DNA from: a virus
Taxonomy: Duplodnaviria; Heunggongvirae; Uroviricota; Caudoviricetes
Virus record (IMG/VR): IMGVR_UViG_3300031884_000008
Direction: 5' to 3' (one strand)
Length of the DNA stretch: 64,000 nt
The notes under the pieces were generated by a model. The model searched no databases, was not told the origin of the DNA, and saw nothing but the letters and a program-made list of their open reading frames with translations. Shown here in pieces: positions 43,378-62,318 of this stretch. A program made the translations under genes and the position numbers. Each line of letters starts with the position of its first letter. The first letter of the stretch is position 1.

Positions 43378-43905
43378 CAACCGCGGACAAGCTTCGCATA
43401 AAAAAAGAAGAGGAAACCCGCATCATCTTTCTCTACGGTAGTGCAATACATAAGGCACTAGAGCGCAATGAATTCCAACATACTCCTTTTAAAACTACGA
43501 CAGGAGGATGCGGTAATCCATGGGTAGTGTGTGATATGCTCGATAAGCAGGAAGTTGTATTTGCCCTATTGAAATACGATTTTCGAATCATGACGCCCAA
43601 CGAACCTCTCTACAAAGAATACGATAAACGAGCCAAAACACTAGATTACGATGAAGCAGATTGGATTGATGAAGATGAAGACCTGTAAAATTTTCGTACC
43701 AACCTAGGTTTTCCATCAAATTAATAAGGCAATACGAGAATCGGGAATCAAACACCTGCCGTATCAAAAAAAGTTTGATGGGTACAACATTGAATTTATG
43801 ACTAATGATCATCCTCTAATTTGTTATCTTATTCTTAAATACGACGTGAAATATGAAATATGAAATATGAAATGTCATAAATATACACAGTATGAAAGAT
43901 TCAGT

Positions 43906-44802
43906 ATGTCTGTAGTAATTTTGACCAAAAGAGAAAAGGATTATGAGAATGCTCGTCTCCTAGAAAGTTTTGCCAACCAAGGTATAAACGTACAGTTTGC
44001 CAATCCAGAAAACTTTGATTTAGTTGTTAGGCAAGGTATAGAAACTGGTATAAATTACAATGGATTGACCCTTGAGAAACCCAAACTTTTGTTGACTAGA
44101 ACTGGATCAGGTACAAATGAGTTTGCAAGGGCTTTGATCAGACAGTTTGAAGAAGAAGGAACACCTTGTGTAAATTCCTCTGAGGGAATTGAGATTGCTA
44201 AAGATAAACTTAGAACATCACAATTACTAGTGAGCAATGGAATTCCAATTCCAAATACGATGCTAGTTAGGTTTCCAGTTGAAGTTGATATTGTAGATAG
44301 AAATATTGGTTGGCCTTGCATAGTAAAAGTGATTAGTGGAAGCTATGGTGAAGGTGTATATCTATGTGAAAGAAAAAAAGATTTCAAAAAGCTTATGGAC
44401 TTCACTGATAGTCTAAAAAGTGCAAAAACCTTAATAGTACAAGAATACGTAGGACACCGCCCAGGTGAAGACCTCAGAGTGTTTGTTGTGGGCGGCAAGG
44501 TGATTGGGGCAATGAAACGTATTGCTCCAGTCGGTGACTTCCGTGCTAATATTTCAAATGGTGGTCACGGTGAAACATTTGAGGTCACCGACGAAATTGA
44601 ATACATTGCGAGAGAGACTGCTAGAGTTTGCGGATTGCAAATTGCAGGGATAGACCTCTTGTTTGATGAAAACGGATTTAAAGTTTGTGAAGCAAACTCA
44701 GCTCCAGGCTTTGAGGGCTTCGAACGATATTGCAATATAAATGTAGCAGACCACATCGTAGGATTTGTTAACTTCAAGTTAAACGGGTTAACCCGCAATT
44801 GA
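43906..44802 (+). CDS. RimK-like ATP-grasp ligase (alpha-L-glutamate ligase family)
   Basis: GWPCIVKVISGSYGEGV...IVQEYVGHRPGEDLRVFVVGGKVIGAMKRIAPVGDFRANISNGG aligns with E. coli RimK. Confidence 0.65.
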   Translation: MSVVILTKREKDYENARLLESFANQGINVQFANPENFDLVVRQGIETGINYNGLTLEKPKLLLTRTGSGTNEFARALIRQFEEEGTPCVNSSEGIEIAKDKLRTSQLLVSNGIPIPNTMLVRFPVEVDIVDRNIGWPCIVKVISGSYGEGVYLCERKKDFKKLMDFTDSLKSAKTLIVQEYVGHRPGEDLRVFVVGGKVIGAMKRIAPVGDFRANISNGGHGETFEVTDEIEYIARETARVCGLQIAGIDLLFDENGFKVCEANSAPGFEGFERYCNINVADHIVGFVNFKLNGLTRN

Positions 44803-44825: not shown

Positions 44826-45041
44826 ATGTCAAAGATGTATAAGAGTGAGGCTTCTTCTACGAAGGTAGATCACATTCAACCCATTACGGTTGAAAAACAA
44901 ATCGAGCTACTTGAATCAAAGATTCGTAGACTAGCAGAGACAGTAGCTAATGTTCAGTCTGAGTTGGGCCTAATGCAGAGGCATTATCGCCGCCAAAAAA
45001 CTGACATATCTAATTTAAATACTGCTGTTCGCAATAGATAA
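44826..45041 (+). CDS. hypothetical coiled-coil protein
   Basis: 71-aa ORF. Confidence 0.3.
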   Translation: MSKMYKSEASSTKVDHIQPITVEKQIELLESKIRRLAETVANVQSELGLMQRHYRRQKTDISNLNTAVRNR

Positions 45042-45137
45042 ATAAATTTGTAGCATGGTGCTTGCTCCTTGATAGCGTTAGAGTAGTTGGGATATTGTCG
45101 AGACATCCGTGAACTACATTTTTATTTATCTTTGTTA

Positions 45138-45166
45138 TTGACAATGGTTTGATGCTACTATATTAT
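45138..45166 (+). promoter_or_regulatory. sigma70-type promoter (TTGACA-N17-TATTAT) reading into the GC-rich island
   Basis: ttgTTGACAatggtttgatgctactaTATTATag. Confidence 0.5.
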
Positions 45167-45258
45167 AGATATGTCAATCAGACATTTATGATGGAGAAAA
45201 GCTATTTCATTTTATTTAAAATCGGGCACGAATTGGCGCGTTACTTCTAAGGATGCGA

Positions 45259-45339
45259 TGGATTTGCATGAGCATCTTCCAGCAGGCAACTACACGGTTG
45301 GTCAGGACATGCAAGGTAATTACGGGCTGGGCTGGTAAA
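45259..45339 (+). pseudogene. 27-codon ORF at the left edge of the GC-rich island (possible truncated toxin remnant)
   Basis: MDLHEHLPAGNYTVGQDMQGNYGLGW; begins where GC content jumps. Confidence 0.25.
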
Positions 45340-45344
45340 AGAAA

Positions 45345-45803
45345 ATGAACACTACGACGACATGCACGGAATGTGGCAATGGCCACTATGAGGAGTACAT
45401 CCTCCCGGAGCACCTGGAGGATGTCGGCGGAATTGAGGTGTGCCTGAAAAACACCGTCCACGTGCGTCGCTGCGCTGGATGTGCGGACGAGATGACCATG
45501 ATCCCGGACATGCGGGGTCTAGTGCGGACGGTGGCTGTGGCTCGTTGCCTGCTGCCGATCAAACTGAACGCGGGTGATATGCGTCTGCTGCGCCGTGCTT
45601 TGGACATGACGCAAAAGGAATTTGCCGAGACGATGGGTATCACGGCTGAGACAGCCTCTCGTTGGGAGAAGGATGGGGGAAAGGGTGTGGGTGACTATTC
45701 GGATCATCTTGTCCGCCACAACGCCTGCGCCCTGCTGGCTGCCGATGCCCCGGGTGAAGGAAAAGATCAACTACGACTATACTGCCCTGCTTTAGGAAAA
45801 TAA
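45345..45803 (+). CDS. MqsA-like antitoxin (N-terminal CxxC...CxxC zinc ribbon + C-terminal HTH-XRE)
   Basis: CTECGNG...CAGCADE zinc ribbon; MTQKEFAETMGITAETASRWE HTH; island GC ~55% vs ~38% flanks. Confidence 0.55.
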   Translation: MNTTTTCTECGNGHYEEYILPEHLEDVGGIEVCLKNTVHVRRCAGCADEMTMIPDMRGLVRTVAVARCLLPIKLNAGDMRLLRRALDMTQKEFAETMGITAETASRWEKDGGKGVGDYSDHLVRHNACALLAADAPGEGKDQLRLYCPALGK

Positions 45804-47170: not shown

Positions 47171-47519
47171 ATTAGTTGGAGGCAAGAATCTCTGACAGTT
47201 AGGATGAAAGACCTAACACAAGTGCAAGTCGGAACGAGGCTGCAAAGCACTTTAAAAAATGAACGGGCGGTGTTAGGGATGAAATCTGCGGAGGTAACGC
47301 AGAAAGTAAAAACTTTCAGTGAAGGGCATTGTGACCCTTCGCAAGTGGGGCAGTCCGAAATGCTGGACAACATATCCTCGCTTGTCAATAAAAAGCTAAC
47401 TATTATTATATGAAAACATAGGACTTAAACACAGTCACTGGGCTACGAACCTCGTTGAAGCAACACGTCAATGTGTTTTCTTATAATCATAGTATTCGTA
47501 TATAAATATCAAGTATTAT

Positions 47520-47593
47520 TGTCCCTTCGTCTAATGGTAAGACATCCGTTTTTGGTGCGGATTATCGAGGTTCGAGTCCTTGGGGGACAGCCA
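47520..47593 (+). tRNA. tRNA-Gln(UUG)
   Basis: Cloverleaf by eye; anticodon loop TTTTGGT; CCA encoded; TATAAATA 13 nt upstream. Confidence 0.7.
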
Positions 47594-47637
47594 AATTATA
47601 TGCCGTGTTAGCTCATACAACATACCTATTAATAGGC

Positions 47638-47644
47638 ATAAATA
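47638..47644 (+). promoter_or_regulatory. late-promoter-like ATAAATA box
   Basis: gcATAAATAactgagctaggacaaagcttATG. Confidence 0.4.
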
Positions 47645-47664
47645 ACTGAGCTAGGACAAAGCTT

Positions 47665-48162
47665 ATGCACGTATGTCACTGCGGTAAAGAGTTTGAAACG
47701 TTCCGTCAATTGAATGGACATAAAAGTGTTCATCGGGAAGGCGGAAGATACTCTATTAGTAGAGGTAGAGCCCGAACAAATATACCTTCGTGTTTGAAAT
47801 GCGAGAAACAATGTGGCGTCAAGCAAAAGTTTTGTTCTAATAAATGTCAAGCAGAATACCAGTCTGCTGAAAAAATTAAAAATTGGTTGATAACCGGTGC
47901 ATTTGATAGCATGGGTTTTCCGGCATGGGCGCGCCGAACTTTAATAGCGTTGCATGGAGCCAAATGTCAGTGGTGTAAATTAGAGCAATGGAACGATCTC
48001 CCAATCACACTAGAATGTGATCATTCAGATGGTAATCCTAATAACAATCATATAGATAATTTAAGGTTGCTTTGTCCAAACTGTCATAGTCAAACTGATT
48101 CCTTTAAAGGAAAAAACAGGGGAAATGGTCGAACGCACCGGTACAAAAATAAGCCGACGTAG
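47665..48162 (+). CDS. HNH endonuclease with N-terminal C2H2-like zinc finger (paralog of 55811)
   Basis: CHCGKEFETFRQLNGHKSVH; ITLECDHSDGNPNNNHIDNLRLLCPNCH; stop overlaps tRNA-Thr start. Confidence 0.65.
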   Translation: MHVCHCGKEFETFRQLNGHKSVHREGGRYSISRGRARTNIPSCLKCEKQCGVKQKFCSNKCQAEYQSAEKIKNWLITGAFDSMGFPAWARRTLIALHGAKCQWCKLEQWNDLPITLECDHSDGNPNNNHIDNLRLLCPNCHSQTDSFKGKNRGNGRTHRYKNKPT

Positions 48163-48330: not shown

Positions 48331-48408
48331 GCAGTCATAGCTCAACGGATGAGAGCATCAGACTACGAATCTGAGGGTTGGGGGTTCGAATCCCTCTGAT
48401 TGCGCCAT
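48331..48408 (+). tRNA. tRNA-Arg(ACG)
   Basis: Anticodon loop CTACGAA. Confidence 0.7.
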
Positions 48409-48418
48409 TTATAGTATT

Positions 48419-48530
48419 GGTCCTAGGTGGTTTTCCTTGGTGGGAAAGGGTGTGACGTTCGAATCGTCTCTATAGGACTTGGGTGCCCCAAAAGCGGTTT
48501 GATTCCGCTAGCCAATACGACTTTATCATG
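48419..48530 (+). ncRNA. tRNA-like element(s) with T-arms (GACGTTCGAATCGTC; AGCGGTTTGATTCCGCT) that do not fold into one canonical cloverleaf
   Basis: Two T-loop consensus segments, stem-triloop TTGGG-TGC-CCCAA; acceptor pairing imperfect. Confidence 0.25.
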
Positions 48531-48549
48531 CGCACTTCGTACAATAGTA

Positions 48550-48622
48550 GTACCGCTGTCTCCAAAGCAGCAGACGTGGGTTCGATTCCAATTAGACCCA
48601 CCAAATTGCGCATTGCACACCA
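48550..48622 (+). pseudogene. degenerate tRNA-Trp(CCA)-like copy (good D and anticodon arms, disrupted T-stem/acceptor)
   Basis: GTACAATAGTAGTAC D-arm; GCTGT-CTCCAAA-GCAGC anticodon arm; T-stem 3' strand does not pair. Confidence 0.3.
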
Positions 48623-48690
48623 AAGTTTATGCCCCGACTATCAACTCACTTAGGTGATTATATAATTAGGATTGAGGGCCACCATAATAC

Positions 48691-48777
48691 GGAGTGGGTA
48701 AGCAGATAGGATCTGTCTTCGCTTGGAAAGCGAAAGGTACCTTACGGGTATAGAGTTCGAATCTCTAACGCTCCGCC
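48691..48777 (+). tRNA. tRNA-Ser(GGA), class II
   Basis: Anticodon loop TTGGAAA; long variable arm. Confidence 0.7.
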
Positions 48778-48931
48778 ATAAGTTTATGCCCCTATCACGT
48801 ATGTTTGGTATCCAACACCGAAAGTAATCGAGAGAAAGATAGAGTAGGGGCGACAGTTTATCGTCAGGTCCCGCAGCGGTAGCAGTTTACTAGTGACTGC
48901 CGGAGAGAAAATTTCCTGACGGCCAAATTAT

Positions 48932-49020
48932 CAGGGTATAGCTCAGCCAGGTCGGAGCGCTCGTTTTGGAAACGAGAGGCGGAATCGTTCACGCAGGTTC
49001 GAATCCTGCTACCCTGACCA
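48932..49020 (+). tRNA. class-II (16-nt variable arm) tRNA with anticodon UGG (Pro), discriminator A73
   Basis: CTCGT-TTTGGAA-ACGAG perfect anticodon arm; var arm AGGCGGAATCGTTCAC; perfect T-arm and acceptor. Confidence 0.5.
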
Positions 49021-49221: not shown

Positions 49222-49605
49222 ATGAAACTGAAAATGTACTGCATCTTCGCTAAAGAAAGCGTAGACAAGATGAAAGGTAATCGCGGAAAGCTTGCTTCTA
49301 TGGCAGGTCACGCATACCTTCATGCTTATTGGAATGCAGTTAGTCTTGAGGTTTCTTCGGACTGCAATCTTCAAGCAATCCAGTACAAGAACAGTGATCA
49401 TGCGTATAAGATCACTCTTATTGTTGACACGGTAGCCGAACTAGAAGTGATTCAAGAGGCATACAAGAATGTATGCGGTGTCTCGTTAGTTAAAGACGCT
49501 GGGTTCACGGTATTCAACGAACCGACTGTTACTTGTTTAGGACTCGGTCCTATTCGAGAAGACTTGATCGGTGAAGATTTGAAAGCCTTGAAGCTATTCA
49601 TGTAG
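49222..49605 (+). CDS. peptidyl-tRNA hydrolase, PTH2 family
   Basis: MKGNRGKLASMAGHAYLHAY matches PTH2 GKGK-AAQ-xHA motif; C-terminal GLGPI...LKLF; embedded in the tRNA array. Confidence 0.5.
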   Translation: MKLKMYCIFAKESVDKMKGNRGKLASMAGHAYLHAYWNAVSLEVSSDCNLQAIQYKNSDHAYKITLIVDTVAELEVIQEAYKNVCGVSLVKDAGFTVFNEPTVTCLGLGPIREDLIGEDLKALKLFM

Positions 49606-50914: not shown

Positions 50915-51298
50915 ATGAAAAAATTACTATGCATCGCTGTGCTTGCGTTAGCAGCATGTACGCCAAATTCAAGTTCACAAGTTGGCGCTGATGGTTATAC
51001 TTTTAAACAAAAGCAGTACGAGAAGCACGAAGTTACGATTAAGATAGTTACATATAAATCACCTTCGGAATTAAACCGAGTAGTAGCAGGGTATCTCAAT
51101 AAGAGTACTACGGCATCAGATCATAAAGTAAATTCTACTAACGTAGTAGCATTTAGCCTGCTGCAACCTCCTAGTTATGATACATGCACAATTCACATGA
51201 TGGATCCTAGCGTGACTTACCAACCAGAGTTTGTTGGTCACGAATTTATCCATTGTATATACGGACAGTTTCACGGCGACAACACAGTAAATAACTAA
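50915..51298 (+). CDS. small lipoprotein with HExxHxxGxxH (metzincin-type) zinc-binding motif
   Basis: Lipobox LALAAC; HEFIHCIYGQFH; ATAAATA + GGGAGGA RBS upstream. Confidence 0.45.
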   Translation: MKKLLCIAVLALAACTPNSSSQVGADGYTFKQKQYEKHEVTIKIVTYKSPSELNRVVAGYLNKSTTASDHKVNSTNVVAFSLLQPPSYDTCTIHMMDPSVTYQPEFVGHEFIHCIYGQFHGDNTVNN

Positions 51299-51299
51299 C

Positions 51300-51374
51300 G
51301 CCCTATTAGCTAAGAGGTATAGCAGCGCTTTCGTAAAGCGAAGGTCGGCAGTTCGATTCTGTCATGGGGCACCA
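51300..51374 (+). tRNA. tRNA-Thr(CGU)
   Basis: Anticodon loop TTCGTAA. Confidence 0.55.
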
Positions 51375-51429
51375 AAAAATCTAAGTGTTTAGGTTGCGAC
51401 ATGTTAAATACATTCGGAGAAAATTTCGC

Positions 51430-51867
51430 ATGTATACTGTTTATAGAATTACTAATTTGGTTAACAGCAAAACCTATATAGGAGTTCATAAGACCAACAA
51501 GCCAATGGATTCGTATTACGGGAGCGGAACTGCAATAAAAAACGCAATTTCAAAATATGGAAAAGAAAATTTTCGAAAGGAAATTCTTTTAATATCCGAA
51601 ACCCGAACGGAAGCATATGATTTAGAACGAAAGCTAACCGAAAACTTTAACGAACATTCAAATTATAATATGAGATTGGGCGGAGTGGGAGGGTTTACCA
51701 AAGAGAGCGCCCTTAAGGGCGCTCTGGCAAGGATAGAAAAAACAACAGTAGAAGAACGCAGTCTTCTGGCCAAAAAAGCTTATTTAGAGTACGTCAGCAG
51801 AATGACGGAGGAAGAATATAGTTCCTATACGAACGCCATGCGAGAAAGAGCTAAAAAGGCGGGTTAG
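51430..51867 (+). CDS. GIY-YIG homing endonuclease
   Basis: YTVYRITNLVNSKTYIGVHKT...YYGSG. Confidence 0.6.
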   Translation: MYTVYRITNLVNSKTYIGVHKTNKPMDSYYGSGTAIKNAISKYGKENFRKEILLISETRTEAYDLERKLTENFNEHSNYNMRLGGVGGFTKESALKGALARIEKTTVEERSLLAKKAYLEYVSRMTEEEYSSYTNAMRERAKKAG

Positions 51868-52107
51868 CGAATAAAGGTAAACCAAAAAATACGGATTCAG
51901 TTGAACACCAAGAAGCCAACAGAAAAAGATCATTAGCCTCTAAAAACAAAGTCAGAATAACTAACGGAGTGATTAACAAATCAATTTCGCCATTGGACGA
52001 AATTCCTATAGGATATAGAAAAGGTCTAACTCGTCGCAACCATAAAGAAAATAAAAAACCCGGTTGACAATTTTTTTATATCTGTTATGATAAAATTAAA
52101 GAAATAT

Positions 52108-52184
52108 GCCCGTATAGCTCAGTGGTCAGTAGCGCAGGTCTCATAAACCTGGGGTCCTAGGTTCAAATCCTAGTGCGGGCACCA
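52108..52184 (+). tRNA. tRNA with CAU anticodon (Met or, more likely given adjacent TilS, Ile2/lysidine)
   Basis: CAGGT-CTCATAA-ACCTG anticodon arm; G1:C72 paired so not an initiator. Confidence 0.7.
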
Positions 52185-52203
52185 TCATCTAAGAGGTACT
52201 CAA

Positions 52204-52881
52204 ATGTCAGTTGCATGGAAAAAGATTCAACAAGAATTAGTGAATCTGTATTCGCAAGATCGTAGAGAAATCCTGCTGATGGTATCAGGAGGACCCGACA
52301 GTATGTTCATGCTAGATTTCTGCAATAATGCAGGCATCGGTTTTACTGTCTGTCATTTTCAGCACGGTATTCGAGACAACGATTATCTCGACAAGGAACT
52401 CATTCAGCAGTTTATTCAGGATAAACAGATTCAATGTAACTTTGTCGTTGGTTACGGAAAGGATCTCAAAGATTCTTCCAACCTTGAAGCAGAGGCCCGC
52501 AGTCAGCGTTGGGAGTTTGTGCGTAACTACAGAAAAACTCTTGGTAAAGAGGTTGTAGCGGTAACTGCACACCACCTCAATGACAATATCGAACAAGTGT
52601 TTTTGGACCTGATGCGGGGCGCCGCTCATTCGAATCTTGGACTTGCTAAGTTTAGATTTGACGAAAGCCTAGAATTTTTTAAATGCAAACCATTTCTTAC
52701 GGTTCCGAAGTCTGTTATTTTAGAACAGTGCAATCGGCGCGGTATCCCCTTCATTGATGATATCACTAATCAAGACAATCACCATGAAAGAAATTGGTTG
52801 AGAAATGAAATCATTCCACAACTGATGAGTCGTAGAAATCTAGAGAAATCTATGCTCAATGCGTTAATTCACAACTATTGA
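52204..52881 (+). CDS. tilS: tRNA(Ile)-lysidine synthetase-like PP-loop ATPase
   Basis: LLMVSGGPDSMFMLDF (SGGxDS PP-loop); VTAHHLNDNIEQVFLDLMRGA; gene starts 20 nt after the tRNA(CAU). Confidence 0.55.
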   Translation: MSVAWKKIQQELVNLYSQDRREILLMVSGGPDSMFMLDFCNNAGIGFTVCHFQHGIRDNDYLDKELIQQFIQDKQIQCNFVVGYGKDLKDSSNLEAEARSQRWEFVRNYRKTLGKEVVAVTAHHLNDNIEQVFLDLMRGAAHSNLGLAKFRFDESLEFFKCKPFLTVPKSVILEQCNRRGIPFIDDITNQDNHHERNWLRNEIIPQLMSRRNLEKSMLNALIHNY

Positions 52882-53127: not shown

Positions 53128-53203
53128 TGCCTAGGTGGCGGAATTGGTATAGCAGCGCTTTCGTAAAGCGAAGGCCGGCAGTTCAATCCTGTTCTAGGCA
53201 CCA
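53128..53203 (+). pseudogene. tRNA-Thr(CGU)-like duplicate with diverged 5' half (poor D-stem)
   Basis: 3' 55 nt near-identical to tRNA at 51300. Confidence 0.35.
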
Positions 53204-53582: not shown

Positions 53583-54146
53583 ATGGCGATTCTAGCCTTG
53601 GACGTTTCGGGTATTCCCCGAACTTGGGTATCTAACGACGATGCAATTTCTTATCACGCGAAGGGTCTTGTGGCCTGGTCGCTAGGTTCGGTAGTTGCTC
53701 GTTATCGTGGTGGCACGAGAAATGACGGTACCCAAAGCTATCTTGAAACTCCGAGTATCATCGCCATTAAGGGCACTGGTTTCGACTTCAAGAAGCACAC
53801 GCATGTTATTCTGACGAACAAGACTTTGTTCGCTCGTGACCGTAGCGTCTGCGCCTATTGCGGTGATCATCACACGAGTCATCAATTCTTGAGTCGTGAT
53901 CACATCAAGCCGCGGTTTCTTGGTGGCGAAGATGAATGGATGAACGTCGTAACTGCTTGTAAGCCTTGTAACCAAAAGAAGGGTTGTAAGACGTTGAAGC
54001 AGGCTGGTATGGAGTTGCTGTACGTACCGTACGAACCGTCACATTATGAACATTTGGTTCTCCAAAACCGCAGCATCCTTGCTGACCAAATGGATTACTT
54101 GATGTCCGGTATTCCAAAACACAGTAGAATTAGACTATATTTTTAA
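53583..54146 (+). CDS. HNH endonuclease
   Basis: CAYCG...LSRDHIKPRFLGGEDEWMNVVTACKPCNQKKG; GC ~47%. Confidence 0.6.
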   Translation: MAILALDVSGIPRTWVSNDDAISYHAKGLVAWSLGSVVARYRGGTRNDGTQSYLETPSIIAIKGTGFDFKKHTHVILTNKTLFARDRSVCAYCGDHHTSHQFLSRDHIKPRFLGGEDEWMNVVTACKPCNQKKGCKTLKQAGMELLYVPYEPSHYEHLVLQNRSILADQMDYLMSGIPKHSRIRLYF

Positions 54147-54854
54147 TTTGCGACAGCGGTCGAAATGCCAAACTTGCATTCCTGATCTTTTACCGATCTT
54201 TTTGCAATGCGGGCACTCGACAATAACCTGAGATTCAAGTGCGGCTTGCTTCTTTCGAAGTTTTGCTGTACTTGAATCTTTTCTACCGAAGTTTGGATTT
54301 GCAGGTCCAATTTTACCGAACATAGGGTTTTTAGCCCCAGACATGTCAGCGTGATTATCGCTCATCTTCTGTTTACGTTCTTCGGTGTGTTTTACACCAA
54401 GTAATGCGTTAGCAATGTTTTTCTTACGCTCAACAGAGTGTGGTCCTACTTTTCTCCCTGTTAGCGTCGTGCTAGTTTTATCTCGTTGCGCTATAGATAT
54501 AACTTTCCCTTTTTGTGAACATCCTATTTTCTTTTTGTGGTTTTCGGTTTTTTTCTTTCCTTTATGTGACGGAGGTTTGCCTCCTCCCGGTACTAAATTG
54601 TAGACATCGGACCTCATTATAAATGATTCATTAACTATTTCAGTTTCCTTAGACAACGCATCATGTTCCGTAGTAAACACATGTAGCGTTTCTCGTATAA
54701 ATTTGTATCGCCCGTATTTCTTTATAGCCTTTAAGATACCTTTACCGCTACCTAAATATCCATCAAATGCGAAGGGGTCACTTTCTTGAAAATGATAACC
54801 CACGTAGATTTTGTTGTTGACAGTGTTAGTAGTTTTGTATATAATGTGAAACAT
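54135..54854 (-). CDS. GIY-YIG homing endonuclease with C-terminal CPHC...WHFDRCRK zinc finger
   Basis: MFHIIYKTTNTVNNKIYVGYH...YLGSG. Confidence 0.65.
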   Translation of the reverse strand: MFHIIYKTTNTVNNKIYVGYHFQESDPFAFDGYLGSGKGILKAIKKYGRYKFIRETLHVFTTEHDALSKETEIVNESFIMRSDVYNLVPGGGKPPSHKGKKKTENHKKKIGCSQKGKVISIAQRDKTSTTLTGRKVGPHSVERKKNIANALLGVKHTEERKQKMSDNHADMSGAKNPMFGKIGPANPNFGRKDSSTAKLRKKQAALESQVIVECPHCKKIGKRSGMQVWHFDRCRKLKI

Positions 54855-56957: not shown

Positions 56958-57024
56958 AAATATAACTTGACACAGAATAAAAATTGTGTCATAGTAGAAA
57001 ACTAAATACTTTTACGAAATACAA

Positions 57025-57182: not shown

Positions 57183-57259
57183 CGGAGATTAGCGCAGTCT
57201 GGTAGCGCATCTGCTTTGGGAGCAGAGGGTCGCAGGTTCGAATCCTGCATCTCCGACCA
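57183..57259 (+). tRNA. tRNA-Pro(UGG), canonical class I
   Basis: Anticodon loop TTTGGGA. Confidence 0.8.
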
Positions 57260-57324: not shown

Positions 57325-57400
57325 GGGCCCTTAGCTCAGCTGGGAGAGCGTCTGCTTTACACGCAGAATGTCGGCAGTTCGATCCTGTCAGGGCCTACCA
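57325..57400 (+). tRNA. tRNA-Val(UAC)
   Basis: Anticodon loop TTTACAC. Confidence 0.8.
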
Positions 57401-57427
57401 TTTAGAAGAAGCCGCGCATACAGGAAA

Positions 57428-57868
57428 ATGCTGCGGCTTTTTCATTTAAATAAATATGATATTAAGAAAGGTAATAAGAAGTTGGCCCTATTTCACAAGC
57501 ATTTGATCGTCCGTGCAGAAGTCAATAAACCAATGGTTTGTCCTGAGAAGGTATCTAAAGAGTGGATGCCTGCTCTTATTGACCGTATTGGTATGAAAAT
57601 TCTCATGGGACCCTATGCTGTTTATAGTGATATGGAAGGTAATCGCGGATTGACCGCTGCCACTATTATTGAGACCAGTCATATTGTCATGCATATCTGG
57701 GATGAACAGAGCCCGGCAATGGTACAACTCGACGTTTATACGTGCGGGCCGCTCGATCCATATGACGTTGTTGAATCGCTTAAGATCATGGATCCAGTTC
57801 ATATCGACATGAAATATTTGGATCGTGAACATGATCTGGTTGATCTTCCTATTCCTGAATCCGAGTAA
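57428..57868 (+). CDS. speD: S-adenosylmethionine decarboxylase proenzyme (SpeH/SpeD small class)
   Basis: ETSHIVMHIWDEQ (pyruvoyl-forming ES-H site) and LDVYTCG motifs. Confidence 0.6.
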   Translation: MLRLFHLNKYDIKKGNKKLALFHKHLIVRAEVNKPMVCPEKVSKEWMPALIDRIGMKILMGPYAVYSDMEGNRGLTAATIIETSHIVMHIWDEQSPAMVQLDVYTCGPLDPYDVVESLKIMDPVHIDMKYLDREHDLVDLPIPESE

Positions 57869-61772: not shown

Positions 61773-62156
61773 ATGTCATACCTACTGTTTCTAGATGATG
61801 TTCGAATGCCAGATCAAGTTACCTGGGAATCGTTCCCTCGCGATGAATTGACCTACATTCTTCGTAACTATGATCAATTCATTAAGCATATTTCGTTGCA
61901 TGGCGTTCCTGAATTTGTCTGTTTTGATCACGACCTTGCAGATGAACACTATGCTGCTATGTTGGCTGAATCTGAAGGTCATGACGCGGCCTACGGTGAT
62001 GAAAAGACCGGATACGATTGTGCCAAATGGTTGGTCGATTACTGCACGGATCACGGAAAGAAATTTCCAAAGTACATAGTACATTCTATGAATCCGGCTG
62101 GTAAAGACAGAATCATCGGTTACATTGAAAATGCGAAGAAGCATTTAGGTATATAA
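61773..62156 (+). CDS. hypothetical protein
   Basis: 127-aa ORF, MSYLLFLDDVRMP N-terminus. Confidence 0.35.
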   Translation: MSYLLFLDDVRMPDQVTWESFPRDELTYILRNYDQFIKHISLHGVPEFVCFDHDLADEHYAAMLAESEGHDAAYGDEKTGYDCAKWLVDYCTDHGKKFPKYIVHSMNPAGKDRIIGYIENAKKHLGI

Positions 62157-62258: not shown

Positions 62259-62318
62259 TTTTTAATAAAATCGGTTGACACGCAGCACACTGTTTGCTAC
62301 TATGAATCATACAGATAC

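Follow-up and report, generated by a model that had tools for sequence, protein, structure and literature searches.

In established lysidine synthetase (TilS) chemistry, C34 of a tRNA with anticodon CAU is adenylated and then attacked by lysine, and the resulting lysidine (k2C34) switches the tRNA from methionyl-tRNA synthetase (MetRS) and the codon AUG to isoleucyl-tRNA synthetase (IleRS) and the codon AUA. [quoted passage not shown] To our knowledge, bacterial tilS genes are not sited beside the gene for tRNAIle2. Here we analyse a locus at positions 52,108 to 52,881 of a 64,000-nucleotide stretch of viral DNA (IMG/VR record IMGVR_UViG_3300031884_000008; hereafter the window), where a tRNA(CAU) gene is directly followed by a gene for a TilS-like protein. 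This protein shares with both bacterial types the PP-loop NTD, the SGGxDS, HxxDxxE and D-x-[ST]-N...RN motifs, and a predicted fold that matches the structures 2e21, 1ni5 and 3a2k with template-modelling (TM) scores of 0.77-0.80. Unlike bacterial TilS, it stops after the catalytic domain at 225 amino acids (aa) and has no CTD1 or CTD2. From comparisons between sequences, we consider it probable that the two genes constitute an AUA-decoding unit, composed of tRNAIle2 and a minimal lysidine synthetase, in a freshwater jumbo phage of roughly 300 kb.

A virus-encoded TilS for AUA decoding is already known as a concept. In the chloroviruses, a putative TilS is present in 39 of 41 genomes and was proposed to raise the decoding of AUA, which is far commoner in virus than in host (PMC7589089). 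These are eukaryotic algal viruses with tRNA clusters, likened to the window here by description only, and operonic coupling of tRNA and TilS is unreported for them. A review also describes lysidine synthase in giant-virus genomes, as well as k2C34 on a vibriophage tRNA(CAU) (PMC13191261). That vibriophage tRNA and the tRNA-Ile of T4 resemble the window in being phage CAU tRNAs for AUA, but both belong to phages without TilS, in which the host enzyme is used.

Among phages, TilS is encoded by the Pseudomonas jumbo phages vB_PaeM_MIJ3 and PA5oct (Wroclawvirus), and the MIJ3 tilS gene (612 nucleotides (nt), 203 aa) is likewise limited to the catalytic domain (PMC6892783). The published description states the function of these proteins as unknown, makes no tie to tRNAs and does not comment on the missing domains (PMC6892783). 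The MIJ3 protein is only about 27% identical to that of the window, and the three CAU tRNAs of the MIJ3 genome (Met-like, Ile2-like and initiator-like) lie 7-10 kb from tilS, whereas in the window we propose that tRNA and TilS share a transcription unit. Two of the MIJ3 tRNAs, at 2151-2227 and 2632-2708 of locus L150, share the same sequence from position 8 to 65, all their differences being in the acceptor stem; on the scale introduced below, one is Met-like (-24.9) and the other Ile2-like (+18.1). In the searchable literature, which leaves subscription journals largely outside, we found neither a description of phage TilS as a distinct catalytic-domain-only clade nor a report of recurrent TilS placement within tens of nt of a tRNAIle2 gene.

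The elements of the locus are as follows.

52064-52091, + strand: sigma-70-type promoter-like site (TTGACA and TATGAT separated by 16 nt, the latter with an extended -10 TG), agreeing at 11 of 12 consensus positions and ending 16 nt before the tRNA
52108-52184, + strand: tRNA(CAU) of elongator type, proposed as tRNAIle2 and as substrate of the downstream enzyme (ARAGORN; Rfam tRNA 63.2 bits, E = 1e-12)
52185-52203, + strand: spacer of 19 nt, whose ribosome-binding site AAGAGG occupies 52191-52196 and is separated from the ATG by 7 nt
52204-52881, + strand: TilS-like PP-loop ATP pyrophosphatase, catalytic N-terminal domain only, 225 aa (PF01171, TIGR02432, predicted fold)

A TilS-like protein comprising the catalytic domain only

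An original prediction, made by a model from the DNA letters alone, had described the coding sequence as a 225-aa PP-loop ATPase with the motifs SGGPDS, AHHLND and KPFL, corresponding to the N-terminal catalytic domain of TilS. All three motifs are present in the open reading frame (ORF) at 52204-52881 (residues 28-33, 122-127 and 169-172, respectively), and the family assignment was borne out. The curated equivalog-domain model TIGR02432 (lysidine_TilS_N, NCBIfam) scored 127.7 bits against a cut-off of 93.6, and was also matched by all 13 close relatives of the protein. PF01171 (ATP_bind_3, PP-loop) gave 118.5 bits and was the sole significant Pfam match; no other Pfam family was found at E <= 1. 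The full-length TilS model NF007942 reached 65.4 bits, where its cut-off is 606. PHROGs contained no family for the protein and returned only sub-threshold PP-loop matches.

Comparison with known structures points the same way, and the coding sequence does not score better as another PP-loop enzyme, an outcome that would have spoken against the prediction. The best sequence matches in the PDB were 1wy5 (Aquifex aeolicus TilS), 1ni5 (E. coli MesJ/TilS) and 3a2k (Geobacillus TilS), with TtuA weaker by at least eleven orders of magnitude. An AlphaFold2 model was obtained with a pLDDT (predicted local distance difference test) of 89.2 and a pTM (predicted TM score) of 0.88. Searched with Foldseek, this model gave TilS structures at ranks 1-6, with E-values from 1e-13 to 2e-11 and identities of 19-26%; TtuA and NcsA came next, at 12-18% identity. 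In alignments of 13 and of 41 short homologues, we see that SGGxDS, HFxHxxR, E95, R102, TAHHxxDxxE, D186-x-T-N and R196-N are all kept. The same alignments contain no conserved cysteine, which argues against an Fe-S thiolase of the TtcA or TtuA type.

The original prediction did not mention that the protein, by ending just past the catalytic domain, departs in build from all characterised TilS. It is not alone in this. In an exhaustive phmmer search, the closest ~43 clusters (at 50% identity) were nearly all of 190-270 aa, and ordinary TilS proteins of 300-490 aa appeared only from E ~1e-22 onward. Relatives are encoded on 394 stretches in IMG/VR, with ORFs of 195-240 aa in 72 of the 81 loci examined. 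The catalytic-domain-only form is thus the architecture of a clade of phage TilS, in which the annotated MIJ3 TilS is included. A 74-aa ORF downstream of the window gene was considered as a split CTD and rejected, because it has no Pfam match and is not homologous to the ORFs that lie downstream of short TilS genes elsewhere; nor did we find, next to the short TilS genes, any conserved ORF that could supply the missing domain. At one of the related loci (L152, 3094-4934), a short TilS gene (36% identity) is directly followed by a gene for a CCA-adding enzyme of the PolyA_pol family, and an RF-1-domain protein is encoded nearby.

A mosaic tRNA(CAU) and its linkage to short TilS genes

The tRNA comprises 77 nt, and the sole flaw in its match to the Rfam model is a C13-U22 pair. 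It displays G1-C72, C3-G70, C4-G69, G5-C68, C11-G24 and U12-A23 pairs, the anticodon loop CUCAUAA, A73 and an encoded 3' CCA. The hallmarks of an initiator tRNA (a 1x72 mismatch, A11-U24 and G12-C23; PMC1635315) are absent. Because G1-C72 is paired and the D-stem carries C11-G24 and U12-A23, the tRNA is of the elongator type, as had been predicted. BLAST searches against E. coli and phage records gave only weak matches, to tRNA-Ile, tRNA-Met and a mycobacteriophage tRNA-Lys.

Whether an elongator tRNA(CAU) belongs to tRNAIle2 or to tRNAMet is reflected in its acceptor stem, where the separating signature on the Ile2 side is G3/A3, or C4-G69 and C5-G68 (Silva et al. 2006; PMC1635315). The original prediction had named C4:G69 and C5:G68 as the TilS identity elements to look for; C4:G69 is present, and C5:G68 is absent, position 5:68 being G-C. 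To place the tRNA on a quantitative scale, we collected 121 distinct CAU tRNAs from 120 bacterial genome loci and subjected them to unsupervised clustering, which gave 75 sequences of Ile2 type and 44 of Met type, with the annotated ileX and metT genes of E. coli as anchors. The clusters are consistent with the published rules for 3:70, 4:69 and 5:68 (PMC1635315). Pair counts at these three positions are given for a 117-sequence bacterial reference, with 75 Ile2-type and 42 Met-type members. In a leave-one-out evaluation, a log-odds score separated the two clusters, with Ile2-type tRNAs at +9.2 or above and Met-type tRNAs at -13.5 or below. Scores for individual tRNAs were as follows.

E. coli ileX: +28.9
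E. coli metT: -32.1
T4 tRNA-Ile: +1.3 (grey zone)
Window tRNA, 52108-52184: -8.3 (grey zone)

We also see that seven of the eight reference sequences nearest to the window tRNA are Ile2-type, yet the mean-difference ratio is 1.02. The tRNA is a mosaic of Ile2 and Met features, and its sequence alone is insufficient for an Ile2 assignment; because it falls in the grey zone, as does the tRNA-Ile of T4, sequence alone cannot decide between the two identities.

The genomic setting is more informative. A metagenomic contig identical to the window over 11,217 bp (Ga0316217_10000008; locus L142) holds two further CAU tRNAs, within ~10 kb beyond the window.

L142 14958-15033: Met-like CAU tRNA, score -25.1, Rfam 59 bits, with the loop UUCAUAU, the T-loop UGCGAGU and U73
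L142 17648-17723: initiator-like CAU tRNA with a C1xA72 mismatch, A11-U24 and G12-C23, lacking the three anticodon-stem G-C pairs

With a Met-like and an initiator-like CAU tRNA already present on the contig, the place left for the tRNA next to TilS is that of Ile2, which completes the three canonical CAU classes. A homologue 58% identical to the window protein, on contigs with no detectable DNA similarity to the window, has a CAU tRNA 24 nt upstream that carries G3-C70, C4-G69, G27-U43 and C29-G41.

The same arrangement recurs at loci L007, L154, L155, L156, L157 and L207. In each of these, the junction consists of a tRNA ending in ACCA, a spacer of 18-24 nt with a purine-rich ribosome-binding site, an ATG, and a protein that starts M..xW(R/K). 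The layout of tRNA, 18-24 nt and ATG is retained at protein identities of 32-58%, with no detectable DNA similarity. For the window itself, the adjacency that had been predicted is confirmed, with a spacer of 19 nt rather than 20. Promoter-like sequences are placed equally upstream of the tRNA in L007, L154, L156 and L207, and sites of the quality of that at 52064-52091 are expected by chance about 0.002 times per 100 nt of the region. From this layout we infer that 52064-52091 acts as a promoter from which tRNA and TilS would be co-transcribed.

We then asked how often such linkage occurs, using 27 clusters (at 70% identity) of short viral TilS; in 19 of them, a tRNA is present at a distance of up to 10 kb. 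In 12 of these 19 it is a CAU tRNA that lies nearest, compared to a background of 22/193 (11.4%; binomial P = 1.1e-7), and in 11 clusters a CAU tRNA lies no more than 100 nt from the short TilS gene. The TilS-adjacent tRNAs score from +22 to +41 in 12 of 14 cases, placing them in the Ile2 type, whereas the distal CAU tRNAs of the same loci score from -7 to -46 or are initiator-like. C4-G69 is found in 13 of 16 TilS-adjacent phage tRNAs, and the CUCAUAA loop in all 16. The converse association is rare: a TilS homologue lies near only one of 120 randomly sampled viral CAU-tRNA loci, and the majority of tRNAIle2 genes in phages therefore depend on the TilS of the host, like that of T4. Taken together, the CAU triad of the genome, the non-random linkage of TilS to tRNA(CAU), and the clearly Ile2-type positional orthologues at the six loci named above support the assignment of the window tRNA as a probable tRNAIle2.

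Anticodon loops were also compared between viral and bacterial CAU tRNAs. In IMG/VR loci L231-L350 there are 123 distinct viral CAU tRNAs, of which 68 are Ile2-like, and 67 of these 68 have the canonical CUCAUAA loop. The canonical loop is found in only 8 of 30 viral Met-like tRNAs, the others varying at positions 32 and/or 38. Loops without A38 occur in 5/6 phage Met-like tRNAs that coexist with a short TilS, compared to 2/42 bacterial Met-type tRNAs (P = 7e-5). We considered the non-A38 loop as a TilS-specific anti-determinant in phage Met-like tRNAs and rejected it, since it is a general viral trait (5/6 vs 12/30, P = 0.08). The variation in Met-like loops might reflect escape from anticodon nucleases or a way of avoiding TilS.

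The source phage and its tRNA array

The window is phage DNA, with genes for tail sheath, tail tube and ribonucleotide reductase, and matches part of a 304,896-bp Joint Genome Institute (JGI) metagenome contig (locus L142) with 0 mismatches in 11,217 bp. The source is a freshwater jumbo phage of roughly 300 kb. The GC content is 41.6% for the window and 40.7% for the TilS-like coding sequence, and so the ~38% given in the original prediction was too low. An identical copy of the TilS-like protein is encoded on 21 contigs, which come from several samples. No near-identical phage was found in INPHARED, where megablast matched only a tRNA-Thr, or by a single-protein scan of IMG/VR.

The array, as identified by ARAGORN, comprises 28 tRNA genes that all lie on the + strand and extend from 47.5 to 62.4 kb in the window. 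Homing endonuclease genes flank the tRNA-TilS unit within this array, similar to the situation of segB in the T4 tRNA cluster, and several other genes lie in the array or just upstream of it.

51385-51867: GIY-YIG (SegE-like) gene
53583-54146: HNH gene
54135-54854 (-): GIY-YIG/NUMOD3 homing endonuclease gene
43867-44802: RimK-like ATP-grasp ligase
49222-49605: PTH2 peptidyl-tRNA hydrolase
57368-57868: AdoMet-decarboxylase-like protein
61773-62156: cREC_REC protein

The cREC_REC family is associated with cyclic-phosphate RNA repair, and in locus L004 another cREC_REC gene lies 2.5 kb from a short TilS gene. Contig L005, which is otherwise 98-99.6% identical to the window, lacks the segments 45041-45784, 47443-48080, 48393-48996 and 50985-51977, the last of which holds a 127-aa ORF, a tRNA-Thr(CGU) and a GIY-YIG endonuclease gene. 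The absence of these four segments from L005 indicates that cassettes of tRNA and homing endonuclease genes are polymorphic between strains.

Some tRNA calls in this region are unusual. The tRNA-Phe(AAA) called by ARAGORN at 53129-53203 (Rfam 38.4 bits) has the anticodon arm GCGCU UUCGUAA AGCGA, the same as that of the tRNA-Thr(CGU) at 51300-51374, to which it is 88.5% identical over 61 nt; it is probably a mis-read Thr(CGU) paralogue with a degenerate D-arm. The tRNA-Pro(UGG) called at 48932-49020 is, at 89 nt, unusually long for Pro, and a second tRNA-Pro(UGG) of normal length lies at 57183-57259. About 4 kb past the end of the window, at L142 14862-14948, an 87-nt 'tRNA-Lys(CUU)' has U73 and a long variable arm like that of a type II tRNA, which is unusual for Lys. 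Further strong sigma-70-like sites lie upstream of the Asn, Ala and Lys tRNAs, at 54817-54845, 56967-56995 and 62275-62303, one of them matching 12/12 consensus positions. This pattern suggests many separate tRNA transcription units that would be driven by host RNA polymerase.

The proposed AUA-decoding module and its alternatives

In the mechanism we propose, the host-type promoter would give rise to a single transcript carrying tRNA(CAU) followed by the mRNA of the minimal lysidine synthetase, as the layout conserved in related phages implies. Host RNases would free the tRNA, with its CCA already encoded, and the rest of the mRNA would be translated from its own ribosome-binding site. By homology, the 225-aa enzyme is then predicted to adenylate C2 of C34 and substitute lysine there, yielding lysidine. 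The modification would turn the tRNA from Met and AUG to Ile and AUA, so that host IleRS could charge it and AUA could be read. Elsewhere in the array, the phage also brings Met-like and initiator-like CAU tRNAs of its own. The original prediction had put forward such a module for tRNA and TilS, and it is supported mainly by the comparative evidence of CAU triad, linkage and Ile2-type orthologues. Its further proposal of decoding independently of the host was too strong: as far as the window shows, host IleRS, the t6A37 enzymes and the processing RNases are still required.

Codon usage agrees with a demand for such decoding. AUA codons are abundant, as had been anticipated: across 54 ORFs of the window they occur 14.35 times per 1000 codons and account for 24% of those for Ile. 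The reference for comparison is a set of tabulated bacteria, in which the frequency is 0.6-4.9 per 1000 (PMC12514573). The AUA share of Ile codons is 5-7% in the tail sheath gene and a gene of 415 aa, and 30-53% in several others. The TilS-like ORF itself uses no AUA among its 15 Ile codons (P = 0.016), and this lends slight support to the idea of an enzyme made before AUA capacity rises.

Several observations weigh against a tRNAIle2 with a dedicated minimal enzyme, and these are best considered together with the other explanations that they favour. The tRNA could be the phage's elongator tRNAMet, with its adjacency to TilS merely incidental in an array of at least 28 tRNA genes and the true substrate being either the tRNAIle2 of the host or a different phage tRNA. 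At -8.3, the window tRNA scores between the Ile2 and Met ranges, slightly on the Met side, and is atypical as an Ile2. C3-G70 is found in 41/42 Met-type but only 4/75 Ile2-type references, G5-C68 in 25/42 compared to 2/75, and the anticodon stem (C27-G43, A28-U42, U31-A39) and G44 are Met-like. Initiator features, which would have told against the original prediction, are absent. In addition, no tRNA is found up to 10 kb away in 8 of the 27 clusters of short viral TilS, which shows that a short TilS needs no linked tRNA gene. We nevertheless regard this explanation as improbable. The same contig offers a better Met candidate (-25.1) along with the initiator-like tRNA, C4-G69 occurs in 60/75 Ile2-type and 0/42 Met-type references, and the nearest references are predominantly Ile2-type. 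Like junctions at the six related loci carry clearly Ile2-type tRNAs, and chance adjacency across the clusters has a probability of about 1e-7.

A second set of doubts concerns the enzyme. All characterised TilS proteins carry one or more appended domains, and these domains are held necessary for activity and for rejection of tRNAMet, with discrimination by type II enzymes an open question (PMC11947777); the activity of a catalytic-domain-only TilS is for this reason putative. With no domains to read the acceptor stem or the anticodon stem, the phage protein might be a C34 modifier of relaxed specificity that also lysidinylates host or phage tRNAMet, and in doing so either reprograms or damages the decoding of the host, as a means of takeover, or changes tRNAs to let them escape anticodon nucleases. 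A Burkholderia TilS deleted for CTD2 loses its 3:70 discrimination, but this truncated enzyme still rejected tRNAMet (PMC11947777). MIJ3, whose Met-like and Ile2-like tRNAs differ in the acceptor stem only, also has a catalytic-domain-only TilS, and the RNA-repair-associated cREC_REC and PTH2 genes lie within the same array as the window unit. The tight linkage of short TilS specifically to Ile2-type tRNAs argues against relaxed specificity, as does the harm that lost tRNAMet function would do to phage translation too, and the non-A38 Met-like loops that might have indicated avoidance are general to viruses. We find this account quite improbable. It is very unlikely that the protein is a PP-loop enzyme of TilS fold with some other chemistry, whether using another amine (ava2C-like or agmatidine-like) or carrying out thiolation like TtcA or TtuA, or that it is an inactive remnant. 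Such a possibility is raised by the low identity to solved TilS structures (19-26%), by TtuA and NcsA as next structural neighbours, by weak TtcA matches in 2 of 13 relatives, and by the ability of TilS to use 5-aminovaleramide in vitro (PMC13602947). However, the 41 homologues share no cysteines that could hold an Fe-S cluster, the TilS model far outscores TtcA and TtuA, the invariance of the catalytic motifs across a diverse clade argues against decay, and the exact protein recurs in many samples.

The probable reading, a tRNAIle2 paired with a minimal lysidine synthetase, can be extended to a broader proposal, to which we give about as much credence as doubt: that phages hold a third architectural class of lysidine synthetase, made up of nothing but the catalytic domain (with 50%-identity clusters numbering at least about 40, and 394 hits in IMG/VR), active without CTD1 and CTD2, and evolved jointly with a tRNAIle2 gene that is fused into its transcription unit. 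If this is true, tRNAMet would be discriminated by a mechanism other than the readout of acceptor stem and anticodon stem used by cellular TilS; the 225-aa enzyme is without both of the domains that bind the tRNA body. It would also mean that nature provides a compact and possibly orthogonal pair of enzyme and tRNA with which AUA might be reassigned, and such a pair could serve as a part for codon reassignment. With 225 aa and 77 nt, a natural catalytic-domain-only TilS and its presumptive substrate make the question of domain requirement directly testable. For the phages themselves, the tRNA-TilS pair is a recurrent module, apparently transcribed as one unit. Some jumbo phages would, in short, bring along a modification enzyme with their rare-codon tRNA, and without that enzyme the tRNA would read the wrong codon.

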